This document shows positions 13,402-63,984 of a stretch of 64,000 nucleotides of DNA, piece after piece (position 1 is the first letter of the stretch; each line of letters opens with the position of its first letter). The translations under genes were made by a program, and so were the position numbers. Source of the stretch: an uncultured Gammaproteobacteria bacterium (GTDB lineage: Bacteria; Patescibacteriota; Microgenomatia; CAYXHB01; CAZYTL01); assembly GCA_964650355.1 (NCBI GenBank), contig CAZYTL010000001.1, positions 149,552 through 213,551 of the forward strand, read 5' to 3'. A model generated the notes under the pieces. That model saw only the letters and a list, made by a program, of their open reading frames with translations, was not told where the DNA came from and did no database searches.

Positions 13402-14811
13402 CTAATAACTAATTATATCGTCTCCAACATGAAAGTCAACATAAGGCGAGAACACAGCGCCAAACTCTGCACCTGAAGCCACCTTGTTCACTTCCTCTTT
13501 GCCCTGTCTTAAAGACTTGATTTTGGTTTTTTTCACTAGCTGGCCATTTCTTAAAAGTAACACCTGATGATCTTTTGATAACTCACCTTCTGCTACTTTG
13601 CCGCCGGCAATCCGATCCTTGTTAATCTTAAACTCGGCCAAAATTTCCGCTTTGGCTTTCACTTCAATCCCATACAAAGGATCAATTAATCGCTGATACT
13701 GATCCGCCAGATATTCAAATAATTCATAAATAATTTTAAAAGTCTTCACTGTCACCTCCTCCGTTTCCGCCAGTTTAGTTACTGATTTGGGCACTGACAC
13801 ATGGAAACCTATCACTTGGGCTCCTGAAGTTTTGGCCAGCAGAATATCATTTTCCGAAATATCACCTACACCTTCGGCTAGTAACTGGATCCCTTTGGGT
13901 AAGGAATTTATTATCGCCTCACTGGAGCCTGCCACATCAGCTTTAACAATGATGGGTAATTTCTGCTCCTGATTCAGGGTGGGGGGAGGAACAGCCGGTA
14001 ACCCGGACGGCTGAACTATGGGCAGATCAGTCGGTAATCCGCTGTGGACTTGGGCTCCCACCGGCGGCACTTCCGTAAAACCCAATATCTGAACTGGTTG
14101 GCTGGGTCCAGCCTCTTTAATCGGCCGGCCCTGGTAATCAAACATGGCCTTGATTTTGCCAGTAATAGTTTCCGCATGGATTGCCTGTCCGATTTTTAAG
14201 CTCCCATTACGTACTATCAGGTTGGCAATCGCACCCCTGCGGTTGTCTAGCTCTGATTCAATCACCACCGCTTCCAGCGTCGCTTGCGGATCTCCTTTCA
14301 ATTCCAAGGTTTCCGCCAGCAAGGCAATCATCTGTAACAACTCATCCACTCCTTGTCCGGTCACTGCTGATACAGGTACTGCGATCACTTTGCCCCCCTG
14401 ATCTTCGGTCGGGTGACCTCGCTCGACCAATTGACTCTTCACTTGCTGGGCATCCGCACCGGGCAAATCCATTTTGTTAATGGCCACCAAAAAAGGCACC
14501 TGCGCTTGGTTGATATGTTGCAGAGACTCCTCTGTTTGCGGTTTGATCCCTTCATTGGCCGCAATCACTAACACCACCAAGTCTGCTACTTGTCCGCCCC
14601 GGGCTCGCATCTTTTCAAACGCCGCGTGTCCGGGAGTATCCACAAAAGTAATCGCGGGATTATCAATTTGATAAGCATTGATGTGTTGAGTGATCCCGCC
14701 TGATTCCTTTTCTGTGACCTTGGTTTTCCGGATATAATCCAGCAAACTGGTTTTGCCATGATCCACATGGCCCATGATGGTGACGATTGGTGGTCGATTA
14801 GCCATAACCAT
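13402..14811 (-). CDS. infB: translation initiation factor IF-2 (short form)
   Basis: G-domain [26 protein letters not shown]; 469 aa. Confidence 0.9.
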
Positions 14812-23561: not shown

Positions 23562-23624
23562 AATCCATTACTTAAGTGTAACACCTTGAGAAAAATAGTT
23601 ACAGGTTAACAGTGAGCCAGGAGT

Positions 23625-23696
23625 GGGATTCGAACCCACGACCCACGGTTTACGATACCGTTGCTCTACCCCTGAGCTACCCTGGCACAGGCTTAT
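23625..23696 (-). tRNA. tRNA-Thr (anticodon CGU)
   Basis: hand-folded cloverleaf: 7-bp acceptor, D-arm GCUC/GAGC, anticodon loop AUCGUAA, T-loop GTTCGAATC; CCA not encoded. Confidence 0.85.
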
Positions 23697-31109: not shown

Positions 31110-32123
31110 ATGGATAAGGATCTCTTCAAAAGGTTTGAAGCTTACCTGCTCCGTCGAGGCAATAAACCTCTGACCATCTATAAAAGAATAAGTTCAATCA
31201 AGAAACTTCTAAGGGAAGTCAGCCCCCTTACGCCTGAAAACCTCGAATTATACTTTGCCAATATGGCTAAAACCAGAAAAGGAACCACGGTAAACACCCT
31301 AATTGATACCATGAGAGTATTTGCGGACTTCCTCGGAAGGTATGAATTAAGAATAAAACATTTTCCTCAAGAGGATCCGATAAAAACAACCATGTCTGAT
31401 GAGGAAATTGAAAGATTCCTTGCTCTTCCCCCTCCATCCCGGACCAGCGAAAACCGAAAAATCGAATATTATCGCTGGACTAAATTCTTCAAAATTTGTG
31501 CCATGACTGGCGCACGTCCAGGAGAAATCGCTAATCTGACCGTTGATGGAGTTGACTTTGGCTTAAATGCTTTAATCGTAGACGGTAAAATGGGTAAAAG
31601 AAAAATCCCGATGGCAGAGAACATCAAAGATGATCTGAAAAATCTCATCGACAATGAAAAAGACGGGTTCCTTTTTTGGTCCTCAAAAGGTGGGAATGGG
31701 GGAGATGCCAAACAACAAAATCCGGTATTTACAGCCACGCAACGCCATTACTACTTTCACGGCCGACTCAAACGCCTGGGGATCAAACGCCGGGGATTAA
31801 CTCCGCACTCGCTCCGCCATAGTTTTATTACCCAATTACTGGAAGAAGATGTTAATTTATTTAAGGTTCAAAAAATCGTGGGACACAAACGGATTGAAAC
31901 CACAGCACAATATACCCACATGACATTAAAAGATGTGCAACAGGCTATCAAAAAACATCCAATTATTCGCAAACAAACGGATCCGTATTCAATCCTTCAA
32001 GCAATCAAAGAATTAATTCAGTCATTCGAACTGGAAAAAGACCAAAGATTTGAATATGTCATCACCGAAACCACCGATGAGTTAAGTCTCTCTGTTAAGG
32101 TTGTTAATAAGCCTAGCAGTTAA
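31110..32123 (+). CDS. int: tyrosine recombinase / phage integrase
   Basis: C-terminal catalytic region HSLRHSF...KIVGHKRIETTAQYTH (R..HxxR..Y). Confidence 0.9.
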   Translation: MDKDLFKRFEAYLLRRGNKPLTIYKRISSIKKLLREVSPLTPENLELYFANMAKTRKGTTVNTLIDTMRVFADFLGRYELRIKHFPQEDPIKTTMSDEEIERFLALPPPSRTSENRKIEYYRWTKFFKICAMTGARPGEIANLTVDGVDFGLNALIVDGKMGKRKIPMAENIKDDLKNLIDNEKDGFLFWSSKGGNGGDAKQQNPVFTATQRHYYFHGRLKRLGIKRRGLTPHSLRHSFITQLLEEDVNLFKVQKIVGHKRIETTAQYTHMTLKDVQQAIKKHPIIRKQTDPYSILQAIKELIQSFELEKDQRFEYVITETTDELSLSVKVVNKPSS

Positions 32124-42747: not shown

Positions 42748-43218
42748 TTATTTATTGTCCGGATTAAATCTATGCCCACAAGCCGGACATTTAATGCTTG
42801 GCTCCACTTTCTTAAATTCGACCCGATAATCCCCCTTAGCCGCAAACTGATTAGCCAATTTAGCGAATCCCTTTCCATGGGTTTCCACGTCATATCTACG
42901 GACCTCTCTTTTATCTTTATACACCACAGCCACATTATCGTCTTTCCCAGGTTTGGAAGTTGAGGCGGGAGACGTCGCCGGCGATGCTCCTTGAGGGCTT
43001 GCGGGTCCTCCACCGCCAGCCGCATCATCGCCTTCAACTCCCTTGCCTTCCTCACCAGCCGTATCCTCAACCTCTTTATCAACATTCTCATTACCAGCTG
43101 CTTGATCTCCACCTTTCTCCTTTTCCTTGACAAACTTTTCCAAATCTTCTTGTGATGCACCAACCACGTTACCGTAACCCAATTCTGTCGCTCGTTTTTG
43201 AAGTTCTTTGTAATCCAT
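42748..43218 (-). CDS. hypothetical Gly/Ala/Glu-rich protein
   Basis: 156 aa; the alternative-frame ORF 42744-43163 reflects low complexity. Confidence 0.3.
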   Translation of the reverse strand: MDYKELQKRATELGYGNVVGASQEDLEKFVKEKEKGGDQAAGNENVDKEVEDTAGEEGKGVEGDDAAGGGGPASPQGASPATSPASTSKPGKDDNVAVVYKDKREVRRYDVETHGKGFAKLANQFAAKGDYRVEFKKVEPSIKCPACGHRFNPDNK

Positions 43219-43263
43219 GTGAATCTGTTAGATCCACAACGCTTTGATAAATACTTTATAACA
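43219..43263 (-). promoter_or_regulatory. promoter-hairpin cassette D (TGTTATAAA, hairpin GUGGAUC-UAACA-GAUUCAC abutting AUG)
   Basis: -10 at 43255-43263; half-motif CACAACGCTTT at 43236-43246. Confidence 0.45.
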
Positions 43264-43429
43264 CATCTGTCAATCTCTTGTCAATCAAAGTCCATAACGT
43301 CTTTCTACTTTTTTGGCTCGTTGCTTTCTTTTCCGCCTCAGCGCCTCTCGGGGATCCGGATTTTTCGCTTCCTCTATCGCGTCTTCCAGCCATTTCTTGA
43401 ACTGCTGGTTAGTGTGCTCACTTCCCATT

Positions 43430-43642
43430 TTAGATAACTCTTAAATAAACATTCACCTTGTCCATCCTGGTAATTTCAGCCGGCAGTTCATAATGCTTTT
43501 GTCCTTTTAATACATCACAAAATATCCAACCCAGACACTTCTCAGAAATCAATTCTTCTGATTTAACCATGATAGCGGCTGGCACGTCTTTGGTGGGTGA
43601 TTCAGATAAAATAATGATTTTACCCTTTATTCTTACCTTCAT
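43430..43642 (-). CDS. hypothetical protein
   Basis: 70 aa. Confidence 0.25.
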   Translation of the reverse strand: MKVRIKGKIIILSESPTKDVPAAIMVKSEELISEKCLGWIFCDVLKGQKHYELPAEITRMDKVNVYLRVI

Positions 43643-43899
43643 AAACCAAATTGCTCCTTTCTGGCTTGAATTTGCTGTGGAGTAGGTTCGATCTTTTCCC
43701 TGTAATTCACAAATGGGCTTAATATCTCCCGCAGTTTTTTAGACGCCAGTAATCTCACCTTTGCTTCTTCACCGGCTTTATCATTATCCAGTTTATCCAA
43801 ACCCTCGACCGTGTCCAACTTACCAATCACGGTCAAAATATGTGCTACCAAGGCTTCGAAATCGGGATTACCCCGAAGTCTTTTAACAATTTCATCCAT
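43639..43899 (-). CDS. hypothetical protein (start revised to MDEIVKR)
   Basis: the ORF-track start is a GTG codon in the promoter/hairpin; AUG is 2 nt after the hairpin. Confidence 0.3.
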   Translation of the reverse strand: MDEIVKRLRGNPDFEALVAHILTVIGKLDTVEGLDKLDNDKAGEEAKVRLLASKKLREILSPFVNYREKIEPTPQQIQARKEQFGL

Positions 43900-43962
43900 A
43901 TAAAGCGCCGGACAATAAATCACAACGCTTTTTTTGAATCAGTTTCTATTTCATTATATCAC
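43900..43962 (-). promoter_or_regulatory. promoter-hairpin cassette E (TGATATAAT overlapping TerL stop codon)
   Basis: -10 at 43954-43962; hairpin variant AAAGCGUUGUGAU...GGCGCUUU at 43908-43940. Confidence 0.45.
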
Positions 43963-45182
43963 AGTCCATAAGCCTTCCTCACGGTCTCCTGTTTTTGTGT
44001 CCGATTATATATCTGGCGCTTCTTAGTCAATTCCTCTTTTTTAGGATCCCGATGTTCCAGAGTAGACATCCCGTAACGGGCAGCGTCCATCAAATGATCC
44101 CAGATTTTTTCCGGCACATTAGGAGAAATTAACTTTCCTAATCTGTCAGTCGCCCAGACATAATTGCGGTATTCTTTAATCAAATTTACACTTCGTTTAG
44201 TCACACTAATAGGCACGTCCTGCATAAATTGAATTCCCTGTCTAACCGAATCTTTACCTTTATCTGCTGCTCTGATATTCACGCCATAAGAATAAATCTC
44301 GTCTATGCTCTTAGGCTCTGCCGAATCAGCTATTACTAAAATATGAGCCTGCGGTAAATACAGAATAAAATCCGCGATCTGTTTATTTGACATTCCTTTT
44401 TGATAAAGTTGTTCATCAAAAATATATCCCCCGTTCAGATAATAAATATCCACCAAGGCTGTTGGATCCAAAGAGTAACCAAAATCCAGTCCTCGCCGTT
44501 CTAGCCGCGCCTCGTGGGGTATTCCATCGATTATTTGCCATCCTATATAAATTTTACCTATTAACTCTCCAAATAATCCCTCCCCATAAACTCTCCAAAA
44601 ATTCTTATTATTTTTCCTCGCCTCAATGGATTGGATAATATTTTCAGATAATGCCTCATTGTCATTATAAGTTAAAATTATATGATCATAATCTTTTCTC
44701 TTAGGTAAAATCTCTTCTGATACCCAAAATTCAGCTACCGGATTATAATCCAAAAAAACAAACTCATTAGTTCTGATTTCCAACTGTTCAAATGTTTCAA
44801 AAGGTACATTATTCGCCTCATTAATAAACAGCCTGTCCCGCCTCGGTCCCCGAACCTTGCCCGGCTGGTCTGCAGAAAAAAATTCTAGCTTGCTTCCCGT
44901 TTCAAAAATATAGAGATAATCAGTTTTATTCCATCGCTGGTTTCTAAAGAGATTTAATCCTCCCATTATGTTCAAAAAGTCCCTCATTGCCCCTCTTTTT
45001 AAATGTGGGAAACTCTCTGACACTACACTAGTCAACGTAGGCTTCTCGTCTCTTTGGGCGCGGTCTATCAAATAAATCAAAATACTAAAGGTTTTTGAAG
45101 AAGCAGTCCCACCCTGAATAATTCTCAATCGTTTAGTTAGCTCCTGGATCTTCTTGGTCGCCGTGGTTATTCCTGGCTGCAT
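43959..45182 (-). CDS. terL: terminase large subunit (PBSX/XtmB-like)
   Basis: Walker-A-like GGTASSKT, nuclease acidic motifs IADSAEPKSI and DHLMDAARYG. Confidence 0.85.
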   Translation of the reverse strand: MQPGITTATKKIQELTKRLRIIQGGTASSKTFSILIYLIDRAQRDEKPTLTSVVSESFPHLKRGAMRDFLNIMGGLNLFRNQRWNKTDYLYIFETGSKLEFFSADQPGKVRGPRRDRLFINEANNVPFETFEQLEIRTNEFVFLDYNPVAEFWVSEEILPKRKDYDHIILTYNDNEALSENIIQSIEARKNNKNFWRVYGEGLFGELIGKIYIGWQIIDGIPHEARLERRGLDFGYSLDPTALVDIYYLNGGYIFDEQLYQKGMSNKQIADFILYLPQAHILVIADSAEPKSIDEIYSYGVNIRAADKGKDSVRQGIQFMQDVPISVTKRSVNLIKEYRNYVWATDRLGKLISPNVPEKIWDHLMDAARYGMSTLEHRDPKKEELTKKRQIYNRTQKQETVRKAYGL

Positions 45183-45624
45183 AATCTAGTAAAGGAATCG
45201 GCTTTCCGCCGCTAGTTAAATCAGTTTCAGTCCTGTCTTTCCACCGAGAATAGTTGTTTTTCAGATTAAACATTGCTCCGGTCGGATTTTTCCCGATAAA
45301 CAATGATTCTTCAGCGTAACCTTCACATATCCCTTTCGCTCTTTTTATCGTGTCAGAAAACCTAGTTTTCTCCTCATAATCCAACAGGGTTTCTCTTGTT
45401 GTATTCAATGCCACCGCCAATCCAGTAATTATGTAAGGCTTGAACTGCTCCATTACCTTCTTTTTTGTTACTTTTCCGGTTTTATCTTTGTGAAACACAA
45501 GATTGCCATCCCGATCTATTTTCTGTCTCCAACAAGATTTAAAATACTTGTTGATTTTTTTCTCCAATTCCTTGATCGATTTGAATTTCAATGGTCTTCC
45601 GCCCTTGTTAATAATTTTAGCCAT
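45133..45624 (-). CDS. terS: terminase small subunit
   Basis: N-terminal KGGRPLKF and ITGLAVALN motif typical of TerS HTH; overlaps terL. Confidence 0.65.
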   Translation of the reverse strand: MAKIINKGGRPLKFKSIKELEKKINKYFKSCWRQKIDRDGNLVFHKDKTGKVTKKKVMEQFKPYIITGLAVALNTTRETLLDYEEKTRFSDTIKRAKGICEGYAEESLFIGKNPTGAMFNLKNNYSRWKDRTETDLTSGGKPIPLLDYAARNNHGDQEDPGAN

Positions 45625-45641: not shown

Positions 45642-45689
45642 AAAAAAAGCGCCGTGAACTATCTCACAACGCTTTATTAAATTATAACA
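45642..45689 (-). promoter_or_regulatory. promoter-hairpin cassette F upstream of terS (TGTTATAAT; hairpin+U7; AUG 16 nt later)
   Basis: -10 at 45681-45689; hairpin 45646-45675. Confidence 0.55.
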
Positions 45690-45712
45690 TAGCAGTATAA
45701 TATATTCATTAG

Positions 45713-45786
45713 TGCGCTCCTCTAGACTTGAACTAGAATCTAAACGTTCGATACACGTTTGCTTTATCCAATTAAGCTAGGAGCGC
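45713..45786 (-). tRNA. phage-encoded tRNA, anticodon AUC (nominally Asp, unusual A34)
   Basis: hand-folded: 7-bp acceptor GCGCUCC/GGAGCGC, U8, D-stem GCUU/AAGC with loop AAUUGGAUA (G18G19), anticodon stem AACGU/ACGUU with loop GUAUCGA (U33, R37), variable loop UAGAU, T-stem UCUAG/CUAGA with T-loop UUCAAGU, discriminator A. Confidence 0.6.
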
Positions 45787-45796
45787 ATTTTTGTGC

Positions 45797-45858
45797 ATAA
45801 AAAAAGCGCCCTTTGTGTTGCTCAGGGCGCTTTGCTCAGTTTCCCGAGCAACACAAAA
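45797..45858 (-). promoter_or_regulatory. attenuator-like element: terminator AAAGCGCCC-loop-GGGCGCUUU+U7 overlapping an alternative 13-bp helix
   Basis: perfect 9-bp IR 45803-45811/45825-45833 with A7 at 45799-45805; competing IR TGTGTTGCTCAGGG / CCCGAGCAACACA (45815-45828 / 45843-45855). Confidence 0.45.
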
Positions 45859-45876
45859 GACGTTTATAGATTTAAG

Positions 45877-45942
45877 CAAAGCGCGTGGTATTTCACAGCG
45901 CTTTTAATAATTCCAGTATATTATTTGGGGACCAGCTGTCAA
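45877..45942 (-). promoter_or_regulatory. promoter-hairpin cassette G2 (TTGACA-16-TATACT then AAAAGCGCUGUGAAAUACCACGCGCUUU)
   Basis: -35 at 45937-45942, -10 at 45915-45920; hairpin 45877-45907. Confidence 0.45.
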
Positions 45943-45964
45943 GATCGATTGAATGTGCTATAAT
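45937..45964 (+). promoter_or_regulatory. plus-strand promoter of the island (TGcTATAAT extended -10), overlapping the divergent minus promoter
   Basis: TGCTATAAT at 45956-45964; start codon of first island gene at 45999. Confidence 0.4.
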
Positions 45965-45998
45965 TTTTGTTAAGACATATAAAAATCCTCCTTGTTAT

Positions 45999-46367
45999 AT
46001 GAATTGGTTAATCAATCATAGTGAGTGGACTTTTCCAATTCTTTTAATATTAGCTCCAATTGGGGTATTTATTCTTTACCGCTTTTTTGAGTGGGAAGAA
46101 AAAATAACTACAAAAACTATAAACTCCATTGAAAAAAACTTAAATAGTAATCTCAAAAATTTACCCCAAAATAAATTGTCTATAATTATAGTTCTAATTA
46201 TTAGTATTTTATTGATAACTTTTTATTGGTTTGAGTGGCGTCCTTCTCAAGTTAAAGCTTATTGTAATCAGTACACCCGCTGGAATGAAAATGGACCTAA
46301 AGTCGATCCTCGTTCCAGATTTTATGATATCTACTACAAAGATTGCCTCCACTCCAAAGGACTCTAA
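45999..46367 (+). CDS. 2-TM membrane protein (moron candidate; start revised to MNWLINH)
   Basis: two hydrophobic helices; opposite strand to all phage genes; the ORF-track N-terminus covers the promoter. Confidence 0.4.
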   Translation: MNWLINHSEWTFPILLILAPIGVFILYRFFEWEEKITTKTINSIEKNLNSNLKNLPQNKLSIIIVLIISILLITFYWFEWRPSQVKAYCNQYTRWNENGPKVDPRSRFYDIYYKDCLHSKGL

Positions 46368-46875
46368 AATTAAGTTGTTCAAAACTGTTACTTTTGTTAT
46401 CTTCGTTATTGGTGTAACGACGTTTAACTATGCAATCTGGAAGAAATCTTCACTCTCTCAAAATATAGAGAGCTGTCCAATTAATAAGCTTGGTATTGAA
46501 TTATTGCCGACCAACATTCAAAACAGTAAAACCATCATCCAACTCATAAAGAAAAACTGTTATTTAGCTTCAACCGCTTTTGAAGATTTTACTCACGATG
46601 GAAGAAAAGACATTTTATTAACCGGAATAGGATATGGATGTGTAAGTTGTCATGCCCGTGATATATACATTCTAAATAATAATAAAATTATTTTTTCATA
46701 TACTGGGGATGATGCCAATATAAAGCAAATTCCAGACGGATTCTTGTTAACAGAACCCATCCGTAAGACCGAGGAGCCATATTGTTGTCCTTCTCAATCA
46801 ATAAGTACCGAATATGATTATTCTCCACAAACAAATAGCTTTATTAAAACCCAGTCAATTATTATAGACAATTAA
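46324..46875 (+). CDS. membrane-anchored Cys-containing extracytoplasmic protein (moron candidate)
   Basis: TM helix then domain with YGCVSCHARD and EPYCCPSQ; +1 frame relative to upstream gene with 44-137 nt overlap (possible frameshift). Confidence 0.35.
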   Translation: MISTTKIASTPKDSKIKLFKTVTFVIFVIGVTTFNYAIWKKSSLSQNIESCPINKLGIELLPTNIQNSKTIIQLIKKNCYLASTAFEDFTHDGRKDILLTGIGYGCVSCHARDIYILNNNKIIFSYTGDDANIKQIPDGFLLTEPIRKTEEPYCCPSQSISTEYDYSPQTNSFIKTQSIIIDN

Positions 46876-46877
46876 TC

Positions 46878-49800
46878 TCAGTAAGAAATTTTTAAGCCCA
46901 ATTCTTTCAATACCACCGGATCAATTCCCGCAACCACCTTGTTAAGATATTGCTTTCCCAATGTGTCTATATCCTTTGATTTGACCCTATTCACCCCTCG
47001 ATTATAGGCAACGATTGCCTTCGCATAATCTCCTTCAAAAGTCTTCAAGTTTTGCTTGATAATTTTAGTTGCATAAACAATCGAAAAAACAGGATCAAGC
47101 GCCTGTTCTTGGGTCACGTTAGGATGAGCATTGCTATTTAATTGAGCAATTCCCACATCCCAGGATCCATCGCTATTCTGATTTTTAGCACCAGGATTAA
47201 ATCCGCTTTCACTGAAAAAGATCGACGCCATCACTGCCGGCACCACGCCTGAGTTTTCAGCAGCCGAATTAATCAATCCTCCAATCTGCTCATTCGGCTT
47301 TTTTCTTTCTTTCTCCTTAAATCCGGAGACTATAGCCGATGTAGGAATTGGCTCCGGATTCTTGCTCGATTGTTGAACCTCTGCGGCGGCCTCCTGACTA
47401 GCGATGTAATTCGGGGCTCCATCCGGCCACTCCTTCCCTGTTACCTCCGGATACATTTTCTGCCAGGCTGCCAACGCCCGATCCTTTTCTTCCTCAGTGT
47501 CAAAAATAGAAGTCTGACCATTGGGATAAGAAACCTCAATCTTCCCATTGAGTAGATCTCTTACACGATAGGGATCCTCATCAGTTTTTTCAGTCAATCC
47601 TTCTGGCTTGGCTGTAGGACTTACCCAGGTTACTGGTTCGCGCTGAAATAATCTTGTGATTGCCCGCTTAACCTTCTCCCAAAAAGAAGGTTTGGGATTC
47701 GCCTTTTCTCTCTCCCAATCTGCCTTAGTCCAATTCTCAGCCGCTAATACATCCGGGACAATCTTTGCGTGGGCAGACTCCAGGAAACCTAAAAGTAAAT
47801 TCTGTTCATCTGTGGGCGCCTCTCCTACTTCTCTCCGGATCCGTTTAAGCGCCTCATCGCTAATTACCTTATTTTTACGTGCGGTATTCAACAGATCATC
47901 ATATTGCTCCGGTGTCAAAGATTTCTTATATAGCTTCATTAATTCTACTTTCTCGTCATTCGTTGTCGCCTCGATTAAACTATCCATTTCTTGGCTCACT
48001 TCACCCTTGATCAATCCAATCTTAAACTTCTTTAGCGTATTTGTCCGCCGGCGTCTATCCGCCTCAGTAAGGATTTTGTCCCCTACAACCTCCCTCACCA
48101 GTTCCTTTTTAAGTCGATCTACCGATTCCGGATTTTCCTTTCCCCGTTTAATATAATCAGCCAGAATCTTTCTTTCCTTCAAAACCCGCTGAGCAGCCTG
48201 TTTATCTAATTCTTTCTTGATTACCTGCTCTGACTCCTTCATTCCATAATCCGTGGACTTAATCGCCCGATTGACTAAAGGAATATTTTTCAATAAATAA
48301 TCAAGTGTGGTATCTGTTTCGTCTGAATAGGTAGTAAACTGGGAGAAACCCAACTCATTCGTTGTCCATTTAATCATCTTCATATACATCGGTAATCCTC
48401 CAGCCTTCCAGGTAATATCGTCAACTACTGGCCGGCCCCTGTAGTTATCGTAAGGATTCTTGCCCTGTAATACGTTCATCCATGCGCCGCCAATTTCCCA
48501 AAGCGGGGTCATTGAGGGAATGTAACCGGATAATAAGTAACCAATTTGTTCCGGTTTTTTGAGGTCATGGTTAAGATAAGTTCCGAGCTTCCAGACAACA
48601 GCAGAGAAGAGCCGTCCGGTTTCGTCCTGGGGGATCCGCCAGTAAGTCGCCTTGCCATTCTTCCTCAAACCCAGAGGGACAATGATATAGTTTGTCTTGT
48701 CATATTCAGTCGCTTTATCTAAAATCTCCTTCACCGTAGCCCCGAAAAGCCCAGCAATCCCAGCCAGCATTAACATTTTAGGTAAAATATCTACTTGAAA
48801 AGTCTTCATCCAGTATCCGGACCGAGTTTGGGGGTTGGTTGCCAGCTCAAAGTCAGTCCGGAGAGCCTGAAGCGCTACATTAGAAAATACAAATACATTA
48901 TTATCCACCACCTTCTGATTCCCGCCATCTATAAAATTAGGAGTACCTACATAGTTACGGGTAATAAATCCGGCCTCCCTTCCGCTTAACTCTCGCTTCT
49001 TGGTCAATTGATAACCTGCTACCTTACTGGTAGTTTCAAACGTAGATCCCACCAGCTCGATTCCATTAAGAATTTTTCGAACCGGTTTTAACATCTGCTC
49101 TTTAAGCCCGCCCTGTTTAACGTCGTCAGTCACGGGGCGGTAACGCTTGATGATTGGCTTTAACCACTCCGCCTCATTCGCAGTGGTATCAAACTTAGTA
49201 AATGGTGTAGTAAATGCCCGATAGTCTAATGCCTCTCTTACCAACGGATCAATTACGTCATTCTGGTAACGGTAAGCCCCCGGAATTGCCTTTAGATACT
49301 CAGATATAAATTCAATAATAGATAATCCCTTTTTATTACCCACCTGTGGGAGTATTGCGCCTAAATTTTTATATGTCCTCTTGGCGTCTCTGATAATATT
49401 GGCGTAAAATCCCCAGGAAATATTGTAAGTAGTCACTACCGGCTTAAACAGTCGATTAAATGCCCCAGATGCTTTGACAATATTATGAATTTCACCCGGC
49501 AGATAAAAGTCAAACATTTGTGCGATATAGGGATCCACGTCATAGGCAATTCGTTTACCATCTTCAAATAATTCCAACGGGACTCGATTTTTAACTTTCT
49601 TCCACCCCACCCGCACACCTTTAGGTTTAACTGGCTTGCTCTTGGAAATATCTGTTGGGAAATTTTCAAGTAATTGATCAACAACCGCCCTCTTGCCTTT
49701 CTGTAGTTCGATTTGCTCTATCAATGCCGCCGTCTTGAGAATTGATGAAGTAGCTGGATTTTCTATTGGCTTTAGTGTTCCTATTGCTTCTTTAATTGCC

Positions 49801-52800
49801 GGCGTTACATAGTTATTATGGATATACTCAATTACTTGGAATGTGGCGTAAGTGTCTTTATTCGGCTTGGCTGTCTCATTAAAAAATTTCTTGCTGTAAA
49901 CTCCGGTCTCGGCCGCCTGCTCTACCACACTGAAGGTCAATTCCCTGAACTTCCCGGCTGATTGCTGAAGAATATTAAATTGTTCATCGCCAATTCCCCG
50001 CTTAGCTAAATGCTTCTTAAAATAATCTAGTGTCTCTTGTGCGTATTCGCCTTGTAAACCATATGGGTTGGCAATATCCTTACGATCTCCAAGCTCCCTT
50101 TCAAGCTTAAGCAGAGTTCCCAAATCATCCTCAGTCATTCCTAATTGATCTAAGGGTGAAGTGATGTCTTTAATAACTGAATCCAGATAGAGATAAACCG
50201 CATTTCTCCTCATCTGCATTTCCTCTAGCTGCATCCGAAGTCGTTGTTTGGGAGATATAATAATGCCGTAGTCTTTTGAAATTGAGTCTACCTTGCGATA
50301 AATAGGATCAAAGCGGGTAATGTGCTGTCTCATAAAGCCCGCCCAAACAGACATTACTCTTTCCATTATCGACTGTCGGGGAAGCTTCTCTTCCATGATT
50401 CCCTTACGGATAGCCTTTGCCTCTGCAAAACCCTCGTAGATGGCATTTAGCCGCTTCTCCTGCACTACATCAGCTGGCTCGTTAAGCAAATCCCAAATTA
50501 CAAACAAATTTTCTTGTACTGCTGGCTTACGGTCTAAATATTCAATAAAGCCCTGCCAGAACTTAGGAGCTTCTGTCTGTAATCGCTTGGGATCATTAAA
50601 TAAGACACTGATCGCATCGGCGTATAATTCCTTTGAAGATCGACGGTATTTATCGTATTTACTTCCTCCCTTACGTTCAAATTCTCCCCGCCATTTTGCA
50701 GATAAATCCATTAACTCATTTCTAATCGCCTTGTTGGTTGATAAATTTCCATAAGTTCCGGCTATATGTTTTTTTAATGTTGCCAATCGCCCCAATAAAT
50801 TACCCCGCGACAACAATTCGTCGGGTAAATAATCAACCAAATGACCAATCTCATGTGCCAAAGTTTTAGTAGCCGTCTCAATATCTGAAAAAATATCAGC
50901 CCTTAATTTAATTTTTCCACCTTCCTTACCGATAAAAACCCCCAAAGCTTTTTGTCCCCCTCTCGTTCCGACTTGTTTCTTAACTACTGGATATTTATTC
51001 ATCAATTCCCTTGTGAGTCCAACCATCTCTGGAAATGGAACTATCTTCACTTCACTCTGAATCTTTGTCAAATTCGGTAATGATTCAAAACCACCAATAG
51101 CAGCAGCTGAAGTCGTGCCTTTTTTCACTAGAGTTTCTCCTTTCGCCAATGCCTCAACCTGCTTCATTAAAACGTTTTCACTTATTCCCAACGCTGTCGC
51201 AACCTCATCAGAGGCCAGTTGACCATTTTTACCCTCTGGAATATGTTCACGGAATAATAAACCAGTCTTCTTACTTTTCTTCTCAGCCAAAAGTCTAAAC
51301 ACTTTCACTAAATACTTAACATCATCGGCAGAATTTCCATACTTAGCGTATTTATCCACAACTCCTTCCTTTTGTGCTCGTTTCATTTCCAACTCTCTCT
51401 CTCGATTTACTGCATTTAATAGTTTTTCATAAGCTGGCTTGATACCTTCAATTCCTGAATATAACTCCTGGGCAGCCGCCAGATCTCCGCTATCAATCGC
51501 TTCCTTTACCATCTCTAGTTCAGCCTTGGTTTCTTCCGGTAAATTCTTCAATAATACCTCTACTGTTTCTGATGGGGGAGGGGCTTCCTTTAATTCTTTT
51601 GCTGTCTGCTTAATTTTATCTGATAACTTACCTGTTTCTAAAAGATTCTTATTATTGGGGTAAATTACCAACTTGGAATCAGTTATCTCTCCTTTTAATA
51701 CGCGTAGCCTTTCTTGTAGATAATCCCTTTGCTGATTAATATCTTCACTTTCTTTTCCTGATAACTCATCCAACTTTTTCTGAATAGCTTCTGGATCAAT
51801 TGAATTAAGAACAGATTCACCCAATCGCCGTTTTTTTATTTCTTGTTTAATTATCTTAGGTACTGAGGGCTCCACAATTTCCACTCTCAATGCAGTCTCA
51901 TCTTCCGTGGGTGATATTTTTATATTTTTATTGTCCCGTTGCGCTTGAAGTGCCGCCTGGAATACCTGCTTGCCAGTATCGCCCTTAATTTCATTTTTCG
52001 CCAACATCTTCATTGCCTCATCCGGTGTCAATTCTATGGTTGACAATGCCTTTACCACTTCCTCTTGTTGGGGTGTGCGCTCTTCGCGGGGTATCTCAAT
52101 TGCCTTCTGAATCTTTTCTTTTATTTGTTGACCAACTTCTTCCGGAGTTGATTTTTTTCCCGTCAATCCAATCACCCCGGAAACTGTCACATCTGAGAAA
52201 CCACCAAGCAATGCCCCAACCACCGCCGATTCCTTAACCCCCTCAAATAAATCCTTGTGTTTGTTATAAGTTTGAGCCACGGCGTTTTGGACAATTTGTT
52301 GAAGTCCCTCCGTGACCCCTTCCATGCCGGACTGAATCGCCACATCAACCATCCCCTCTGTAATCATTTTTAGTAATGGCTTTTTAACTGTGGATCCTAA
52401 GCCTGTTTTCCTGATTAGTCTTTCTAAGGGAATCACGTCTAGTGCGCCCATGATGGATCCACCAATCATGGCTAAGGGCATTGCTTCATTATCGGAAAGT
52501 CCTGCGGTTCTTGCTTCTACATAAACATCATTGGCGTTCAATCCATAAGAAGTAGATAAACCGACCTCCGTAGCCAATATTGGGTTCTTCGTCACTACCT
52601 CTGTAGCCAAAGCCAGACCATAGCTAACAGCCATCTGGGGTACATTGTATGCGGCCATTTCTAAATAACCCTGCAATCCTGTCGAAGGCGTATAGGTCTT
52701 TTTGAATTCCTCCTCTGCCTTTTGTTGTTTTGTATATCCAGACTCCTTAAGCTGTCTAGCATATTCAGGTGATCCAATGATTGGACCCTGGATGGTAAGT

Positions 52801-53186
52801 GCTGATTCTTTCGGCTGATATTTTTCGCCACCAGGCAAAATCTTTAATGTTGTCTTAATAAAAGCTCTATTAATTTTCCTCTGAATGTCTGTTAAATTAG
52901 CCAGGATAATTCCGCCGGCAGTCTCAAACTGCCCAGGCGTGGCTTTCAACCCACCAACAAAAGATTGTCCCAGTTTTTGAAGATTCAACCCCTCAATTGT
53001 ACCCGTTTCCTGTGGTCCAGTTTCTATTTTATGTATTGGCTCCGTGGGTATAATCGGTCTATTTGTACTGGGCAGGAATTTGACAATTTCCTCATGTGTT
53101 GGAATTCCAAGTCGTTGGGTACTTAAAACCTGGTTCTTTTTAAGTTCCTGTTCTATTTGCTGGTGAGTGGGAAGGGTGAAGGGCAT
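46878..53186 (-). CDS. giant virion protein, tape-measure/ejection-like, with zincin HEIGH motif and C-terminal lytic transglycosylase (SLT) domain
   Basis: 2102 aa; Gly-rich and coiled-coil N-terminal third; TLAHEIGHLVDY; C-terminal FSESGFNPGA...DVGIAQLN...AYNRG SLT motifs. Confidence 0.6.
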   Translation of the reverse strand: MPFTLPTHQQIEQELKKNQVLSTQRLGIPTHEEIVKFLPSTNRPIIPTEPIHKIETGPQETGTIEGLNLQKLGQSFVGGLKATPGQFETAGGIILANLTDIQRKINRAFIKTTLKILPGGEKYQPKESALTIQGPIIGSPEYARQLKESGYTKQQKAEEEFKKTYTPSTGLQGYLEMAAYNVPQMAVSYGLALATEVVTKNPILATEVGLSTSYGLNANDVYVEARTAGLSDNEAMPLAMIGGSIMGALDVIPLERLIRKTGLGSTVKKPLLKMITEGMVDVAIQSGMEGVTEGLQQIVQNAVAQTYNKHKDLFEGVKESAVVGALLGGFSDVTVSGVIGLTGKKSTPEEVGQQIKEKIQKAIEIPREERTPQQEEVVKALSTIELTPDEAMKMLAKNEIKGDTGKQVFQAALQAQRDNKNIKISPTEDETALRVEIVEPSVPKIIKQEIKKRRLGESVLNSIDPEAIQKKLDELSGKESEDINQQRDYLQERLRVLKGEITDSKLVIYPNNKNLLETGKLSDKIKQTAKELKEAPPPSETVEVLLKNLPEETKAELEMVKEAIDSGDLAAAQELYSGIEGIKPAYEKLLNAVNRERELEMKRAQKEGVVDKYAKYGNSADDVKYLVKVFRLLAEKKSKKTGLLFREHIPEGKNGQLASDEVATALGISENVLMKQVEALAKGETLVKKGTTSAAAIGGFESLPNLTKIQSEVKIVPFPEMVGLTRELMNKYPVVKKQVGTRGGQKALGVFIGKEGGKIKLRADIFSDIETATKTLAHEIGHLVDYLPDELLSRGNLLGRLATLKKHIAGTYGNLSTNKAIRNELMDLSAKWRGEFERKGGSKYDKYRRSSKELYADAISVLFNDPKRLQTEAPKFWQGFIEYLDRKPAVQENLFVIWDLLNEPADVVQEKRLNAIYEGFAEAKAIRKGIMEEKLPRQSIMERVMSVWAGFMRQHITRFDPIYRKVDSISKDYGIIISPKQRLRMQLEEMQMRRNAVYLYLDSVIKDITSPLDQLGMTEDDLGTLLKLERELGDRKDIANPYGLQGEYAQETLDYFKKHLAKRGIGDEQFNILQQSAGKFRELTFSVVEQAAETGVYSKKFFNETAKPNKDTYATFQVIEYIHNNYVTPAIKEAIGTLKPIENPATSSILKTAALIEQIELQKGKRAVVDQLLENFPTDISKSKPVKPKGVRVGWKKVKNRVPLELFEDGKRIAYDVDPYIAQMFDFYLPGEIHNIVKASGAFNRLFKPVVTTYNISWGFYANIIRDAKRTYKNLGAILPQVGNKKGLSIIEFISEYLKAIPGAYRYQNDVIDPLVREALDYRAFTTPFTKFDTTANEAEWLKPIIKRYRPVTDDVKQGGLKEQMLKPVRKILNGIELVGSTFETTSKVAGYQLTKKRELSGREAGFITRNYVGTPNFIDGGNQKVVDNNVFVFSNVALQALRTDFELATNPQTRSGYWMKTFQVDILPKMLMLAGIAGLFGATVKEILDKATEYDKTNYIIVPLGLRKNGKATYWRIPQDETGRLFSAVVWKLGTYLNHDLKKPEQIGYLLSGYIPSMTPLWEIGGAWMNVLQGKNPYDNYRGRPVVDDITWKAGGLPMYMKMIKWTTNELGFSQFTTYSDETDTTLDYLLKNIPLVNRAIKSTDYGMKESEQVIKKELDKQAAQRVLKERKILADYIKRGKENPESVDRLKKELVREVVGDKILTEADRRRRTNTLKKFKIGLIKGEVSQEMDSLIEATTNDEKVELMKLYKKSLTPEQYDDLLNTARKNKVISDEALKRIRREVGEAPTDEQNLLLGFLESAHAKIVPDVLAAENWTKADWEREKANPKPSFWEKVKRAITRLFQREPVTWVSPTAKPEGLTEKTDEDPYRVRDLLNGKIEVSYPNGQTSIFDTEEEKDRALAAWQKMYPEVTGKEWPDGAPNYIASQEAAAEVQQSSKNPEPIPTSAIVSGFKEKERKKPNEQIGGLINSAAENSGVVPAVMASIFFSESGFNPGAKNQNSDGSWDVGIAQLNSNAHPNVTQEQALDPVFSIVYATKIIKQNLKTFEGDYAKAIVAYNRGVNRVKSKDIDTLGKQYLNKVVAGIDPVVLKELGLKISY

Positions 53187-57632: not shown

Positions 57633-59411
57633 CTAAGTCGGGGCAGGCAACTGGGCCTGTACTATCTCTGGATTCTTATTCGACAACGCTCCGGCTTGCT
57701 CTCTTTGGGGCAGTTGGGTCTCCGCAGGCGCCGTTTCTCTCCTGGGAGGGATAGGGATTCCCCTCGATCTGTAAATCTGGTCCAGGATCCAACCAATCCT
57801 CGCCGGATCCTTTTCTAATCCGATTAGATTTATCAAATCCTGTATCTGGTCCTGTATGTCGCTATTTTCACCAGTAATCGTTATAAACAACCTTGGCAAT
57901 ACATTTTTCCAGATTTCCTTAGAATTCTTAATTACTGGGTCTATCCGCCGCAATTCATCCAGCTTCTCCGCCTTAATTGTCTTAGCTATTTCTAGAGTAT
58001 GAGGACCGATTTTAACTAGATTTTGTGCATACCAACTCTCCGCCATAATTTCCCTGAATTGGTCTAAAATATCAGTGTCACCCACCAATCTGAAAATATC
58101 TTCACCCCTTAAATACTTCACCAACTCCGGCAATACCCACTCTCTGAATACCCGCTTATAAGGCAATGCCAGCTTTTGTCTTAACAACGCAAATAATCGT
58201 CCGGCGTTCTGATCAATCAATGCTCCCAACCTAAATGGCGTTCCGGAGGGCAATGATTCACCCCGGACCACCTCAAAAGAATTAGACAGTCTGTCCGCGT
58301 CGTTAATCAATCGGTTCCAGTCCGCTATCAGCTGATCCATCGCCTGCATCCTCACATCCAGCTGAGCCAGGTCCTCAGTGATCACCACGTCGCCATTATC
58401 TAAATCGGCTCGGATATTCTGCAACACAGTGGGATCCTTACTTCTGAAAATCACCTTGGAAGCCCATTCCAGCCCTGTAGCCAACTGATTCCCGATTTCA
58501 TTCGCTCTGATCTGGTGGTCAAATAGCAACTCATACATTCCTACCCGCCAAAATCTACCCTCGTAGCGTCCCCGGTGGGCATAGATATAATAATCAGACA
58601 TTTTTCCATCTAACTTCTCGGCGAACAACGTATACTTCTCCCCCGCCCCACTCTTCCTCAAACCCGCCAGGATTACCTTTGCTAAAAAGTGTTTATTTTC
58701 ATCTCCCCTCCCTTCCTCATTCACCTCATTAAACTCCTTTTCCGAAACTTCCCCGGTAAACTCAAAAATCTCATAAACCTTACCCGTCTTTTCAATGGGT
58801 GTGGTTTTATCAGCAGCCTTAAAAAACTTATTCCCTAATTCTTTAATTACCTCATCCACATGATTCCAATCCGACATAGATTTCAGCTCCGAAGCAATCA
58901 TCTCATGTCTTTCAATTAGGTCGGTGTTGTCAATCGACCTGGCTGTTTGATTAGTTATGTAAGCGTTCAGTGAATCTACCATCTCATAGCCGCCATCAAT
59001 CTTCTTAAACCCCACGTTTCCAGAAGTCACAAATTCCTCTACCGCCGCTTTTAATTTTTCATCTTCACCGTTTTCTGCCATCCATTCCTTCAGTTTGGCG
59101 TTAGAAATAAACACCGCTGGAAAATCCTTTTGAGGATTACGCGAAAAAATCAAGATGTGCTTGGTATCAAACCTTAAATTCTTCACCTCGCTGTCTGCCC
59201 GGTTAGAGATAATGTCAAAATAATAGTTGTAAGATAAATCCGCATTAATCTTGGTCCCCGACAAGTCACGATTCTTAAACCTATTTATCCTGTTAATTAG
59301 CTTATATTGACTAAAAAACACCCTCTCAGACAATTCAATATTCCGAGAGGTATAGTTCTCAATCTCGGATTCGATTCTGGAATATAATGTGGATTGGTTA
59401 GTCTTTGGCAT
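57633..59411 (-). CDS. large virion protein (possible portal)
   Basis: 592 aa acidic with Pro/Gln-rich C-terminus; call rests on size and context only. Confidence 0.25.
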   Translation of the reverse strand: MPKTNQSTLYSRIESEIENYTSRNIELSERVFFSQYKLINRINRFKNRDLSGTKINADLSYNYYFDIISNRADSEVKNLRFDTKHILIFSRNPQKDFPAVFISNAKLKEWMAENGEDEKLKAAVEEFVTSGNVGFKKIDGGYEMVDSLNAYITNQTARSIDNTDLIERHEMIASELKSMSDWNHVDEVIKELGNKFFKAADKTTPIEKTGKVYEIFEFTGEVSEKEFNEVNEEGRGDENKHFLAKVILAGLRKSGAGEKYTLFAEKLDGKMSDYYIYAHRGRYEGRFWRVGMYELLFDHQIRANEIGNQLATGLEWASKVIFRSKDPTVLQNIRADLDNGDVVITEDLAQLDVRMQAMDQLIADWNRLINDADRLSNSFEVVRGESLPSGTPFRLGALIDQNAGRLFALLRQKLALPYKRVFREWVLPELVKYLRGEDIFRLVGDTDILDQFREIMAESWYAQNLVKIGPHTLEIAKTIKAEKLDELRRIDPVIKNSKEIWKNVLPRLFITITGENSDIQDQIQDLINLIGLEKDPARIGWILDQIYRSRGIPIPPRRETAPAETQLPQREQAGALSNKNPEIVQAQLPAPT

Positions 59412-62826: not shown

Positions 62827-63984
62827 CTACAAAAGATCCGGATTAATAAAAATCATTCCAGATTCGGTCTTTATTAAATTGTTTCGCTTCATGGTGTTGA
62901 TATACTCGTTAAAACTACCCCCCTTTGCGCTCATTCCTACCGCAAGAGCGATTTGAGATCTTGTGTGTTTCATGGGATAGGTATTAGCAAGCAGCCGGAG
63001 AATATCCGGAGCCGATCCCCGCAATTTGCTCGCCCACATCTCAATCTGACTATTGGGTATAACCTCCACGCCGTTCTGTATCTCCTCAAATTCCTCATCG
63101 CCGATTATTGCCGCTATCTTTTCTAGTTTCTTAGATAGCCGGCCAATCTCCTTATCCCTGGCCCTTAGTTGCTCTTCGTAGTCGTTCTCCAGTGATTTGA
63201 GCTGCTCATCAACCTGCTTTTGACTATAGCCTTTTTCAGTCCTTTGAGGAGTTGAGACAGGGACCGGACCATCATCGGATCCGGTTACATTACTGATAAA
63301 ATCATCAATAAAAGCTTGGATATCCATATCTTTATAGAGGCGGCCCGCCTGCCCTAGTCGTGGCATCCCAAATTTCATGTCTATCTTTTCTCTATCGGGA
63401 TGGAAAGTTTCGCGCTCCCGGATCCTTATTCTCTCAAAGGTCTTCAGAAATTCCGGTGACCAGAGCCATCCCTCGCCCGTGGGAAGAGAGGGGAGTGACT
63501 GCATAAATTCATTGAAGTCATCTTCGGCGGCGTGATACTCAACCCACTCCTTTAGAGCCTTGCGGTCCTGTGGTGCCGTATTTCTAAAGGCCAACAAAGT
63601 ATCAATCTGTGTCAAAACGTCTTTGTTGATCGTTGCGGCTCTTTGATTAATTAAAGTCACCCCCAGCCCCCGATTCCTTCCCATGACCACCAATGCTTCA
63701 ATTGCCGCAAAAACCTTACCCATGGCACCAAACACCCTCTGGGGAACGAATTCATGAGCTTCTTCAATAAAAACATGTCGGGGCCGGTCATTAATTCTCA
63801 ATAACTCTTCCGCCAAATCAGCCATAAGCTCTCTCTGGCCTACTTTCGGCATCCCAAAAGTGGAAATGATACAAGAGACATTCTCTTTTACGATGGCTTC
63901 AGCTATCTGCTTTCCCATCTTCCGGTCAATAGGAACGTCGGCGTGGTCCAATCCAAATACCACAATAGGCAGCCCCTTATCCAT
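62827..63984 (-). CDS. HerA/FtsK-superfamily (DUF87-like) ATPase, N-terminus beyond window
   Basis: Walker B FIEEAHEF followed by GRNRGLGVTLINQRAATI; no Walker A in visible part, so probably truncated by the window edge. Confidence 0.5.
   Translation of the reverse strand: MDKGLPIVVFGLDHADVPIDRKMGKQIAEAIVKENVSCIISTFGMPKVGQRELMADLAEELLRINDRPRHVFIEEAHEFVPQRVFGAMGKVFAAIEALVVMGRNRGLGVTLINQRAATINKDVLTQIDTLLAFRNTAPQDRKALKEWVEYHAAEDDFNEFMQSLPSLPTGEGWLWSPEFLKTFERIRIRERETFHPDREKIDMKFGMPRLGQAGRLYKDMDIQAFIDDFISNVTGSDDGPVPVSTPQRTEKGYSQKQVDEQLKSLENDYEEQLRARDKEIGRLSKKLEKIAAIIGDEEFEEIQNGVEVIPNSQIEMWASKLRGSAPDILRLLANTYPMKHTRSQIALAVGMSAKGGSFNEYINTMKRNNLIKTESGMIFINPDLL

Follow-up and report, generated by a model that had tools for sequence, protein, structure and literature searches.

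We analysed a tRNA gene carried by a prophage in a 64,000-nt stretch of contig CAZYTL010000001.1 (the whole stretch is hereafter the window). The gene lies on the minus strand at window positions 45713-45786, is 74 nt long and reads the anticodon AUC; it occupies a 1.25-kb gap with the gene for a 2102-aa protein on one side and terS, the small terminase gene, on the other. An earlier note on this DNA had proposed a phage-encoded tRNA here with an anticodon that is very unusual for the decoding of aspartate (Asp). Our comparisons confirm the gene and indicate that its AUC anticodon sits on a body of arginine (Arg) type.

ARAGORN calls a tRNA at 45712-45786 on the minus strand with anticodon atc, and a local search of 351 bases with the Rfam model RF00005 (gathering score 29 bits) returns 54.2 bits (E 3.8e-11) over 45713-45786, covering model positions 1-71, that is, the full length. 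Both tools thus recognize the gene. Read as RNA from 45786 to 45713, the sequence is GCGCUCC UA GCUU AAUUGGAUA AAGC A AACGU GUAUCGA ACGUU UAGAU UCUAG UUCAAGU CUAGA GGAGCGC A, which forms a cloverleaf with stems of 7, 4, 5 and 5 bp in which 21 of 21 stem pairs are Watson-Crick. All invariant nucleotides are present (U8, A14, G18G19, U33, G53, U54-U55-C56, A58 and C61, with the G53-C61 pair), together with G37, a 5-nt variable loop and the T loop UUCAAGU. The canonical features first listed for this cloverleaf are all found in the sequence, and only its length, then given as 73 nt, has to be corrected. The anticodon loop G32-U33-A34-U35-C36-G37-A38 corresponds to 45748-45754 (TCGATAC on the plus strand) and places the anticodon A34-U35-C36 at 45752-45750 on the minus strand; the sequence and the ARAGORN and Rfam calls agree on this reading, which is also the one originally made. 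Like the host tRNA-Thr of the same window, the AUC tRNA has no encoded CCA. No credible ORF covers the site, in keeping with the absence of a gene from the ORF track used earlier.

An Rfam run over the whole 64-kb window at the gathering threshold listed one other tRNA only (Thr-CGU, 23614-23686) and missed the AUC tRNA because the speed filters dropped it. Default Rfam speed filters can drop A+T-rich tRNAs, and a whole-window "no hit" is no proof of absence. Rfam also matched SprX, the rpsL leader and other families here, but these matches score far under their gathering scores, overlap the tRNA or the terminators, and were rejected as chance.

The first part of the window (1-31 kb) is bacterial chromosome, with genes for EamA, an aldehyde dehydrogenase, starch synthase, IF-2, NusA, glycosyltransferases and an ABC transporter; the closest named relatives of the NusA belong to Patescibacteria (Chisholmbacteria and "Patescibacteria group" among them). 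A tyrosine integrase at 31110-32123 opens the prophage, which extends to the window end (beyond 64000) and encodes an endolysin-like C39 peptidase, a 1237-aa lectin-domain protein, a major head protein, terL, the gp3-type terS and the 2102-aa protein, which ends in a lytic transglycosylase. With terS, terL, head protein, endolysin and virion transglycosylase in the same element, the description of the tRNA as phage-encoded stands. We also considered whether the gene is a host tRNA serving as the prophage attachment site. This was ruled out: there is no second copy of its 3' end in the window (up to 3 mismatches allowed), phage-type genes flank the tRNA on both sides and the integrase is 14 kb away.

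The nature of the tRNA body emerged from a comparison of its D arm, queried exactly from U8 to C25 with the D loop AAUUGGAUA, which gives A20 and U20a after G18G19. The exact arm occurs in 41 viral contigs, and 23 of the 30 tRNAs that hold it are tRNA-Arg, with none for Asp. Among cellular genomes (one per species, bacteria and archaea) it occurs at 75 loci, many of them from Patescibacteria; here 62 of 72 tRNAs are tRNA-Arg (CCG 16, UCU 15, GCG 13, CCU 8, ACG 6 and UCG 4) and again none is Asp. A tRNA-Arg(GCG) from the Levyibacteriota, within Microgenomates (locus L078), shares with the AUC tRNA the identical D arm (A20, U20a), 13 of the 15 positions of acceptor stem plus discriminator, six of seven acceptor-stem pairs, A73 and the complete T loop UUCAAGU (7/7). 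The acceptor stem, A73 and this T loop are common to the AUC tRNA and the Microgenomates tRNA-Arg(GCG) of both L078 and L089 (Collierbacteria). G32 is present in 10 of 224 parsed tRNAs, nine of which are Arg, in a set that is Arg-enriched through the mode of its collection.

The closest anticodon arm belongs to a chromosomal Bacteroidales tRNA-Arg(CCU) (locus L072), which reads AACGU-GU-CCU-GA-GCGUU-AGAU against AACGU-GU-AUC-GA-ACGUU-UAGAU in the AUC tRNA. Over the stretch from U8 to 48 the two agree at about 36 of 41 positions, including the G32-U33 and G37-A38 flanks, 9 of 10 anticodon-stem positions and the AGAU of the variable loop, whereas all three anticodon bases differ. The Patescibacteria tRNA-Arg(GCG) and the L072 tRNA-Arg(CCU) are set apart from the AUC tRNA by their anticodons, by the presence of C35 and G/U36, which both ArgRS and the reading of Arg codons require, and by a different T stem. 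As a test against circularity, we masked the anticodon and compared the AUC tRNA with 176 bystander tRNAs that had not been picked through the D arm. Arg was again the top isotype (mean identity 0.50) and supplied nine of the 20 tRNAs closest to the AUC tRNA, where about 3.5 would be expected; Asp came 18th among 19 isotypes, at a mean identity of 0.42. Judged by these comparisons, only the anticodon appears Asp-like, while the D arm, acceptor stem, A73, T loop, G32 and anticodon stem all match tRNA-Arg. The label tRNA-Asp therefore fits the AUC anticodon but not the body. A simple one-step derivation of the loop from tRNA-Arg(ACG) is no more than speculation: to turn GUACGAA into GUAUCGA takes an insertion plus a deletion, or three substitutions.

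Other tRNAs retrieved alongside show peculiarities of their own. Patescibacteria tRNA-Arg(CCU) has G32, in the loop GUCCUAA. A 94-nt phage tRNA-Arg(UCU) with the same D arm (L026, 1751-1844) carries a long insertion in or after the anticodon arm, as does a tRNA called Thr(AGU) (L104, D-arm match at 5611-5630); these insertions may be introns or mis-called structures.

Which amino acid such a molecule accepts depends on the identity elements seen by aspartyl-tRNA synthetase (AspRS) and arginyl-tRNA synthetase (ArgRS). Bacterial Asp identity comprises G73, G10, G34, U35, C36 and C38, with G1-C72 and G2-C71 strictly conserved, and Arg identity comprises A20, the main determinant for E. coli ArgRS, C35, G/U36 and A/G73 (PMC9976931). 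Anticodon determinants are the strongest in bacteria, U35 and C36 being strong ones for Asp (PMC9976931). At the Asp positions the AUC tRNA has A73, G10, A34, U35, C36, A38, G1-C72 and C2-G71; at the Arg positions it has A20, U35, C36 and A73, so that A20 and A73 are in place and C35 and G/U36 are not. All unambiguously readable tRNA-Asp(GUC) in the fetched loci have G73. Two phage or mobile tRNA-Asp(GUC) (L016 and L077) read UCGA at positions 35-38, with G37-A38 in place of C38 exactly as in the AUC tRNA, and G37-A38 is therefore tolerated in some Asp tRNAs. Since neither the Asp nor the Arg set is complete, the accepted amino acid cannot be read from the sequence.

The codon, in turn, has its ordinary meaning. 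When prophage GAT sites were aligned with homologues in related contigs, Asp made up 58% of the aligned residues and formed the majority at 43 of 71 sites, and Arg was absent from the top residues. This figure is comparable to those of the control alignments (GAC with Asp 75%, GAA with glutamate (Glu) 59%, Arg codons with Arg 56%). Because the homologues have Asp at these sites, GAU is an ordinary Asp codon in the prophage, and its reassignment, which we had considered, is ruled out. Productive use of the tRNA therefore requires Asp charging.

This result bears directly on the alternative that A20 and A73 lead to arginine charging of the tRNA, which on expression would read GAU and so mistranslate Asp as Arg. 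The D arm, acceptor stem, T loop and G32 are as in Patescibacteria tRNA-Arg, A20 is the main determinant of E. coli ArgRS and A73 falls within the A/G73 of the Arg set. A20 in the variable pocket reportedly conferred Arg identity on an amber suppressor that also had U35 (McClain and Foss, 1988). Such charging would nevertheless make the phage harm its own late proteins, GAU being its top codon and standing at conserved Asp sites, and the other major ArgRS determinant, C35, is absent along with G/U36. In addition, G37 as m1G37 is an anti-determinant for ArgRS in yeast tRNA-Asp (PMC9976931). We consider arginine charging quite improbable.

Of the 61 sense codons, GAT is the one that the prophage ORFs use most, at 383 of 9191 codons (41.7 per 1000); the 33 host ORFs in the window stand at 29.4 per 1000. 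The comparison of GAU and GAC usage between phage and host, raised in the earlier note, gives a GAT/(GAT+GAC) ratio of 0.66 in the prophage and 0.59 in the 33 host genes (Fisher p = 0.02). A separate codon shift concerns the host tRNA-Thr(CGU) (23614-23686, minus strand), which has a purine, A, at position 32: its codon ACG stands at 10.7 per 1000 in the prophage and 5.7 in host genes, about a twofold difference.

An A at wobble position 34 raises the question of deamination to inosine, which had been suggested as one explanation of the anticodon. According to PMC11066159, inosine at 34 also reads A-ending codons, for which reason A34 in a split box is safe only as long as it escapes deamination. 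E. coli TadA is highly specific for the loop of tRNA-Arg2, every tested change at position 32, 37 or 38 blocking it (PMC11066159). The substrate loop is Y32-U33-A34-C35-G36-A37-A38, that of tRNA-Arg(ACG), and the AUC tRNA, with G-U-A-U-C-G-A, departs from it at 32, 35, 36 and 37; these mismatches make inosine formation unlikely. A close parallel is the tRNA-Asp-AUC of Streptomyces, in which A34 is kept in 97% of reads, position 32 is a purine and GAU is decoded (PMC9262613). This tRNA is thought to bypass inefficient G-U wobble where queuosine is absent, and a database survey found Asp-AUC candidates in only five bacterial genomes beyond Streptomyces (PMC9262613). The anticodon is thus as unusual as first described, and given a functional tRNA-Asp-AUC in Streptomyces it is very rare without being unprecedented.

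A tRNA with inosine at 34 would be a decoder of both GAU and GAC. A34 is the substrate position, and E. coli TadA partly modified an engineered tRNA with an AUG anticodon whose loop was otherwise that of tRNA-Arg2 (PMC11066159). However, the loop of the AUC tRNA differs from the substrate at four positions, among them 32 and 37 where changes abolish modification, the Streptomyces tRNA is not deaminated, and inosine in this split box would also read GAA and hence a Glu codon. The host may even be without TadA, tRNA-Arg(GCG) being common in Patescibacteria (D-arm loci including L063, L078, L089 and L130); none of the tRNA-Arg(ACG) genes with the shared D arm comes from Patescibacteria. Family scans of the window ORFs found no tadA or tgt. 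The inosine-modified decoder can hardly be upheld and appears to us highly improbable. Since tRNA-Arg(GCG) is common in Patescibacteria, many of them likely read CGU and CGC without I34; taken with the G32 of their tRNA-Arg(CCU), this hints that these bacteria may follow lineage-specific anticodon-loop rules.

The reading we favour, with a probability of roughly 45%, is that the prophage encodes a late-expressed Watson-Crick decoder of GAU made from a host-lineage Arg-type tRNA. An Arg-type tRNA of the Patescibacteria kind would have been carried by the prophage and its anticodon turned to AUC. During lytic growth the gene would be transcribed together with terS and the late genes from the promoter at 45942-45915, through the terminator that follows it; RNase P and a 3' nuclease would excise the tRNA, and CCA would be added as in host tRNAs. 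A34 would remain unmodified and pair in Watson-Crick fashion with the U of GAU, and AspRS would charge the tRNA through U35 and C36. The phage would presumably benefit from a supplement to the host tRNA-Asp(GUC), which reads GAU by G-U wobble only. We favour this decoder because the gene is a canonical tRNA (54.2 bits, 21 Watson-Crick pairs, complete invariants), because GAT is the top codon of the prophage and aligns with Asp, and because there is a Streptomyces precedent, the loop is not a TadA substrate and U35 and C36 are strong Asp determinants.

The surroundings of the gene bear on its expression. A putative sigma-70-type promoter by consensus match, TTGACA-16-TATACT (11/12 matches; 45915-45942, minus strand), was the sole strong candidate in the promoter scan able to drive the tRNA. 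It is followed on the same strand by a hairpin (H0, AAAGCGCUGUGAAAUACCACGCGCUUU; 45878-45904) that opens the leader and by an intrinsic terminator (T1; 45799-45861), in which a 19-bp hairpin at 45861-45808, the inverted repeat I1, precedes GC and U7; a shorter terminator hairpin (AGCGCCCU/AGGGCGCU) is also feasible at T1. The tRNA begins 12 nt after the end of T1. Beyond it lies an extended -10 element, TGTTATAAT (45681-45689, minus strand), read from the sequence, with no -35 and unreported by a promoter scan that required one; placed between the tRNA and terS, it is what had earlier been called the terS promoter. A second intrinsic terminator (T2; 45642-45675, minus strand) consists of a 13-bp hairpin and U7 and stands 37 nt past the tRNA 3' end, directly before the ribosome-binding site of terS. 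The first downstream gene is terS itself (45133-45624, minus strand; start codon at 45624; Pfam GP3_package, E 2.9e-16). Compared with shuffled controls the leader is far more structured (z-score -8.4).

With T1 before it and terS after it, the tRNA does lie in the leader of terS, as first described. The proposal of co-transcription needs amending: from the putative upstream promoter it would take read-through of a 19-bp hairpin with U7, which antitermination could allow. Given the strong T1 between promoter and tRNA, the tRNA would be made only through T1 read-through. The order promoter, T1, tRNA, T2 and terS is consistent with late expression that depends on antitermination; no antiterminator, Q-like ones included, was identified. 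The lambdoid Shiga-toxin phage 933W offers a comparable layout, with ileZ-argN-argO downstream of PR'/tR' in the late-operon leader. As with the AUC tRNA, the 933W tRNAs follow a late promoter and a terminator and precede the late genes, and their expression would depend on antitermination. Unlike the AUC tRNA, they are ordinary rare-codon isoacceptors whose bodies and anticodons match.

Several repeats occur in this leader. H0 (45878-45904) and the T2 hairpin (45642-45675), both on the minus strand, closely resemble each other (AAAGCGYUGUGARAUA...GCGCUUU), and each sits after a -10 element (TATACT and TATAAT, respectively), with a U tract after the second only. An exact 12-nt direct repeat (AAAAAAAGCGCC on the plus strand) marks the ends of T2 and T1 (45642-45653 and 45799-45810, 157 bp apart), and this pair flanks the tRNA cassette. 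Hairpins and repeat together may represent a regulatory RNA or antitermination module present in repeated form, or else record how the tRNA cassette was inserted.

A structured leader with terminators on both sides also suits a different role, that of a tRNA-shaped RNA that does not decode. It might act as a decoy or sponge that engages a host nuclease directed at tRNAs, or an enzyme that modifies or charges them (one specific for tRNA-Arg, for instance), or else as an RNase P/Z processing or stability element of the late-operon leader. A decoy for a protein that binds Arg-tRNA would be expected to pair an Arg-type body with a scrambled anticodon, and tRNAs by which phages counter tRNA-cleaving defences have been described (PMC10264068, PMC11555353, PMC11464382). 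Those tRNAs are phage-borne and have an unusual anticodon loop, like the AUC tRNA; they keep a cognate anticodon and body and alter adjacent loop positions, whereas here the wobble base and the identity of the body differ. A decoy should moreover retain the loop that the nuclease recognizes, yet this loop has changed. No tRNA-related or defence gene was found among the 43 window ORFs scanned, and PADLOC reported no known defence system for 10 nearby proteins, only generic ABC-ATPase and HerA-like matches, the window covering 64 kb of host genome; nor is an anticodon nuclease known in the host lineage. As for the base itself, tRNA-Asp is among the four tRNAs cut by colicin E5-type nucleases at G/Q34-U35, a site that A34 would be expected to abolish. 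A non-decoding role seems unlikely to us overall.

Searches for relatives of the gene gave little. Nine terL relatives (55-70% identity) share the terL-to-capsid module, have no tRNA and differ in the region upstream of terS, and none of nine terS relatives (viral and metagenome contigs) has a tRNA at the matching position, the tRNA-Asn found 3.4 kb away in one of them (L057) being unrelated. The exact 5' 26-mer had no match in viral, genome or metagenome contigs, and neither the anticodon-arm pattern nor the T arm plus acceptor pattern had one in viral contigs. The D arm combined with a GUAUCGA loop produced one chance match, in a coding region, and with any UAUC loop 43 matches, none of them a tRNA. 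Megablast of the region against INPHARED phages yielded no match, and blastn of the tRNA yielded insignificant D-arm matches only (E = 2). That the tRNA is a conserved feature of this phage group was thus not borne out, as it is absent in all nine terL and all nine terS relatives.

These searches and several other results weigh against the GAU decoder. The AUC tRNA is a singleton across the viral, genome and metagenome collections searched, and conservation or covariation therefore cannot argue for function. Three of the six AspRS determinants (G73, G34 and C38) are missing together with the conserved G2-C71 pair, and the tRNA possesses A20, the main determinant of ArgRS. The strong T1 stands between the only good promoter and the tRNA. 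The rise in GAT is modest and not specific to Asp, with AAT, GAG and AAG rising equally or more, and the host codon sample is 33 genes only. Finally, the predicted minimum-energy fold is an extended rod of -27.2 kcal/mol against -23.4 for the cloverleaf, a gap of 3.8 kcal/mol. Such a preference is not seen for the host tRNA-Thr or for a phage tRNA-Arg with the same D arm, and a tRNA-Arg from the candidate phyla radiation (CPR) in the same comparison kept all four cloverleaf stems.

Much of this would be expected of an inert relic, an acquired Arg-type tRNA whose anticodon has since changed, which is not efficiently charged and is carried neutrally. Its identity elements conflict, with the Asp and Arg sets both incomplete, it lacks conserved relatives, a strong terminator lies ahead of it and a non-cloverleaf fold competes with the cloverleaf. 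Yet outside the anticodon we see no decay: the Watson-Crick pairs are intact (21/21), as are the invariant nucleotides and those of the tertiary interactions. Relative to the closest anticodon arm, that of the L072 tRNA-Arg(CCU), the changes centre on the anticodon bases while G32-U33, G37-A38 and the stem are kept, a pattern resembling a directed change of anticodon and not random drift, and the new anticodon fits the top codon of the phage. A relic is accordingly a real possibility, though a minor one.

The decoder we favour invites comparison with its Streptomyces counterpart, described from Streptomyces sp. SPC6 and from 32 other streptomycetes (Chen et al., NAR 2022, PMC9262613). Both are bacterial tRNAs with an AUC anticodon and a purine at 32, and the Streptomyces gene, too, lies in what appears to be an integrative element. 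A34 has been demonstrated to be unmodified in the Streptomyces tRNA and would be so in the prophage tRNA. They differ in other respects. The Streptomyces tRNA has C33 and a low covariance score (29), and the prophage tRNA has U33, a canonical body and 54 bits. GAU decoding has been demonstrated for the Streptomyces tRNA only, and the present one is phage-borne, from Patescibacteria, and of Arg-type body. No homologues of the Streptomyces tRNA were reported outside streptomycetes (PMC9262613); our comparison with it is by description, the SPC6 sequence being given in a figure only.

Taken singly, phage tRNAs, Patescibacteria prophages (PMC12911398) and a bacterial tRNA-Asp-AUC have all been described before. 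The novelty lies in their combination: an AUC anticodon on a canonical Arg-type body, in a CPR prophage and in a late leader bracketed by terminators. tRNAs with an unmodified A34 are almost absent from two-codon boxes, and among bacteria only one tRNA-Asp-AUC has so far been characterised. If an unrelated second case were added, A34 decoders of GAU would seem to evolve repeatedly in settings where translation is held back by G-U wobble, with the caveat that ours is a single sequence. In the present case the anticodon targets the top codon of the phage, within the little-studied and genome-reduced Patescibacteria.

The Arg-type body also makes the gene a natural experiment in tRNA identity, in which charging by AspRS, by ArgRS or by neither would each inform us about the identity rules of the lineage; if uncharged, the tRNA becomes a candidate decoy. 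In its boldest form, this would be a natural tRNA of hybrid identity that reads GAU with a full Arg-type body (A20, A73 and Arg acceptor stem), reflecting either tolerance by AspRS or deliberate mistranslation, a proposal we regard as distinctly unlikely. Were the first branch true, the Patescibacteria AspRS would accept a tRNA lacking G73, G34 and C38, identity would lie almost entirely in U35-C36, and the anticodon alone would have switched the amino acid. Were the second true, the phage would use an Arg-charged GAU reader to mistranslate Asp deliberately as Arg late in infection.

Beyond the tRNA, the gap and the prophage around it contain further features. Just upstream of the strong promoter, at 45973-45993 (minus strand), a perfect Shine-Dalgarno sequence, AAGGAGG, is found 8 nt before a two-codon mini-ORF (ATG TCT TAA). 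A divergent extended -10 promoter, CTGTCA-17-TATAAT with TG (45936-45964, plus strand), faces the ORFs at 45999-46367 and 46231-46875. These two plus-strand ORFs have no family match in Pfam, PHROGs or PADLOC, and the first appears membrane-embedded; the pair opposes the direction of the phage late genes and resembles a moron or lysogenic-conversion cassette beside the tRNA.

The 2102-aa protein (46878-53186, minus strand) resembles internal virion or lytic tail proteins; the lytic transglycosylase at residues ~1940-2090 is its sole recognisable part, the other 1900 residues having no significant match. Between terL and the head gene (43218-43959) there is no portal-sized gene, only ORFs of 70-233 aa. 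Upstream of the tRNA gap stand large genes without annotation (592, 483 and 493 aa; region 57633-59411), and the gene at 62827-63984 shows matches both to HerA/FtsK-type ATPases and to the C-terminal region of large terminases. The alternatives are a virion module split in two by a tRNA-moron insert and a pair of phage-like elements in tandem. On the host side, the IF-2 at 13402-14811 (minus strand) is only 469 aa long and is without the long N-terminal region usual in bacterial IF-2, which is consistent with a reduced translation apparatus in Patescibacteria.

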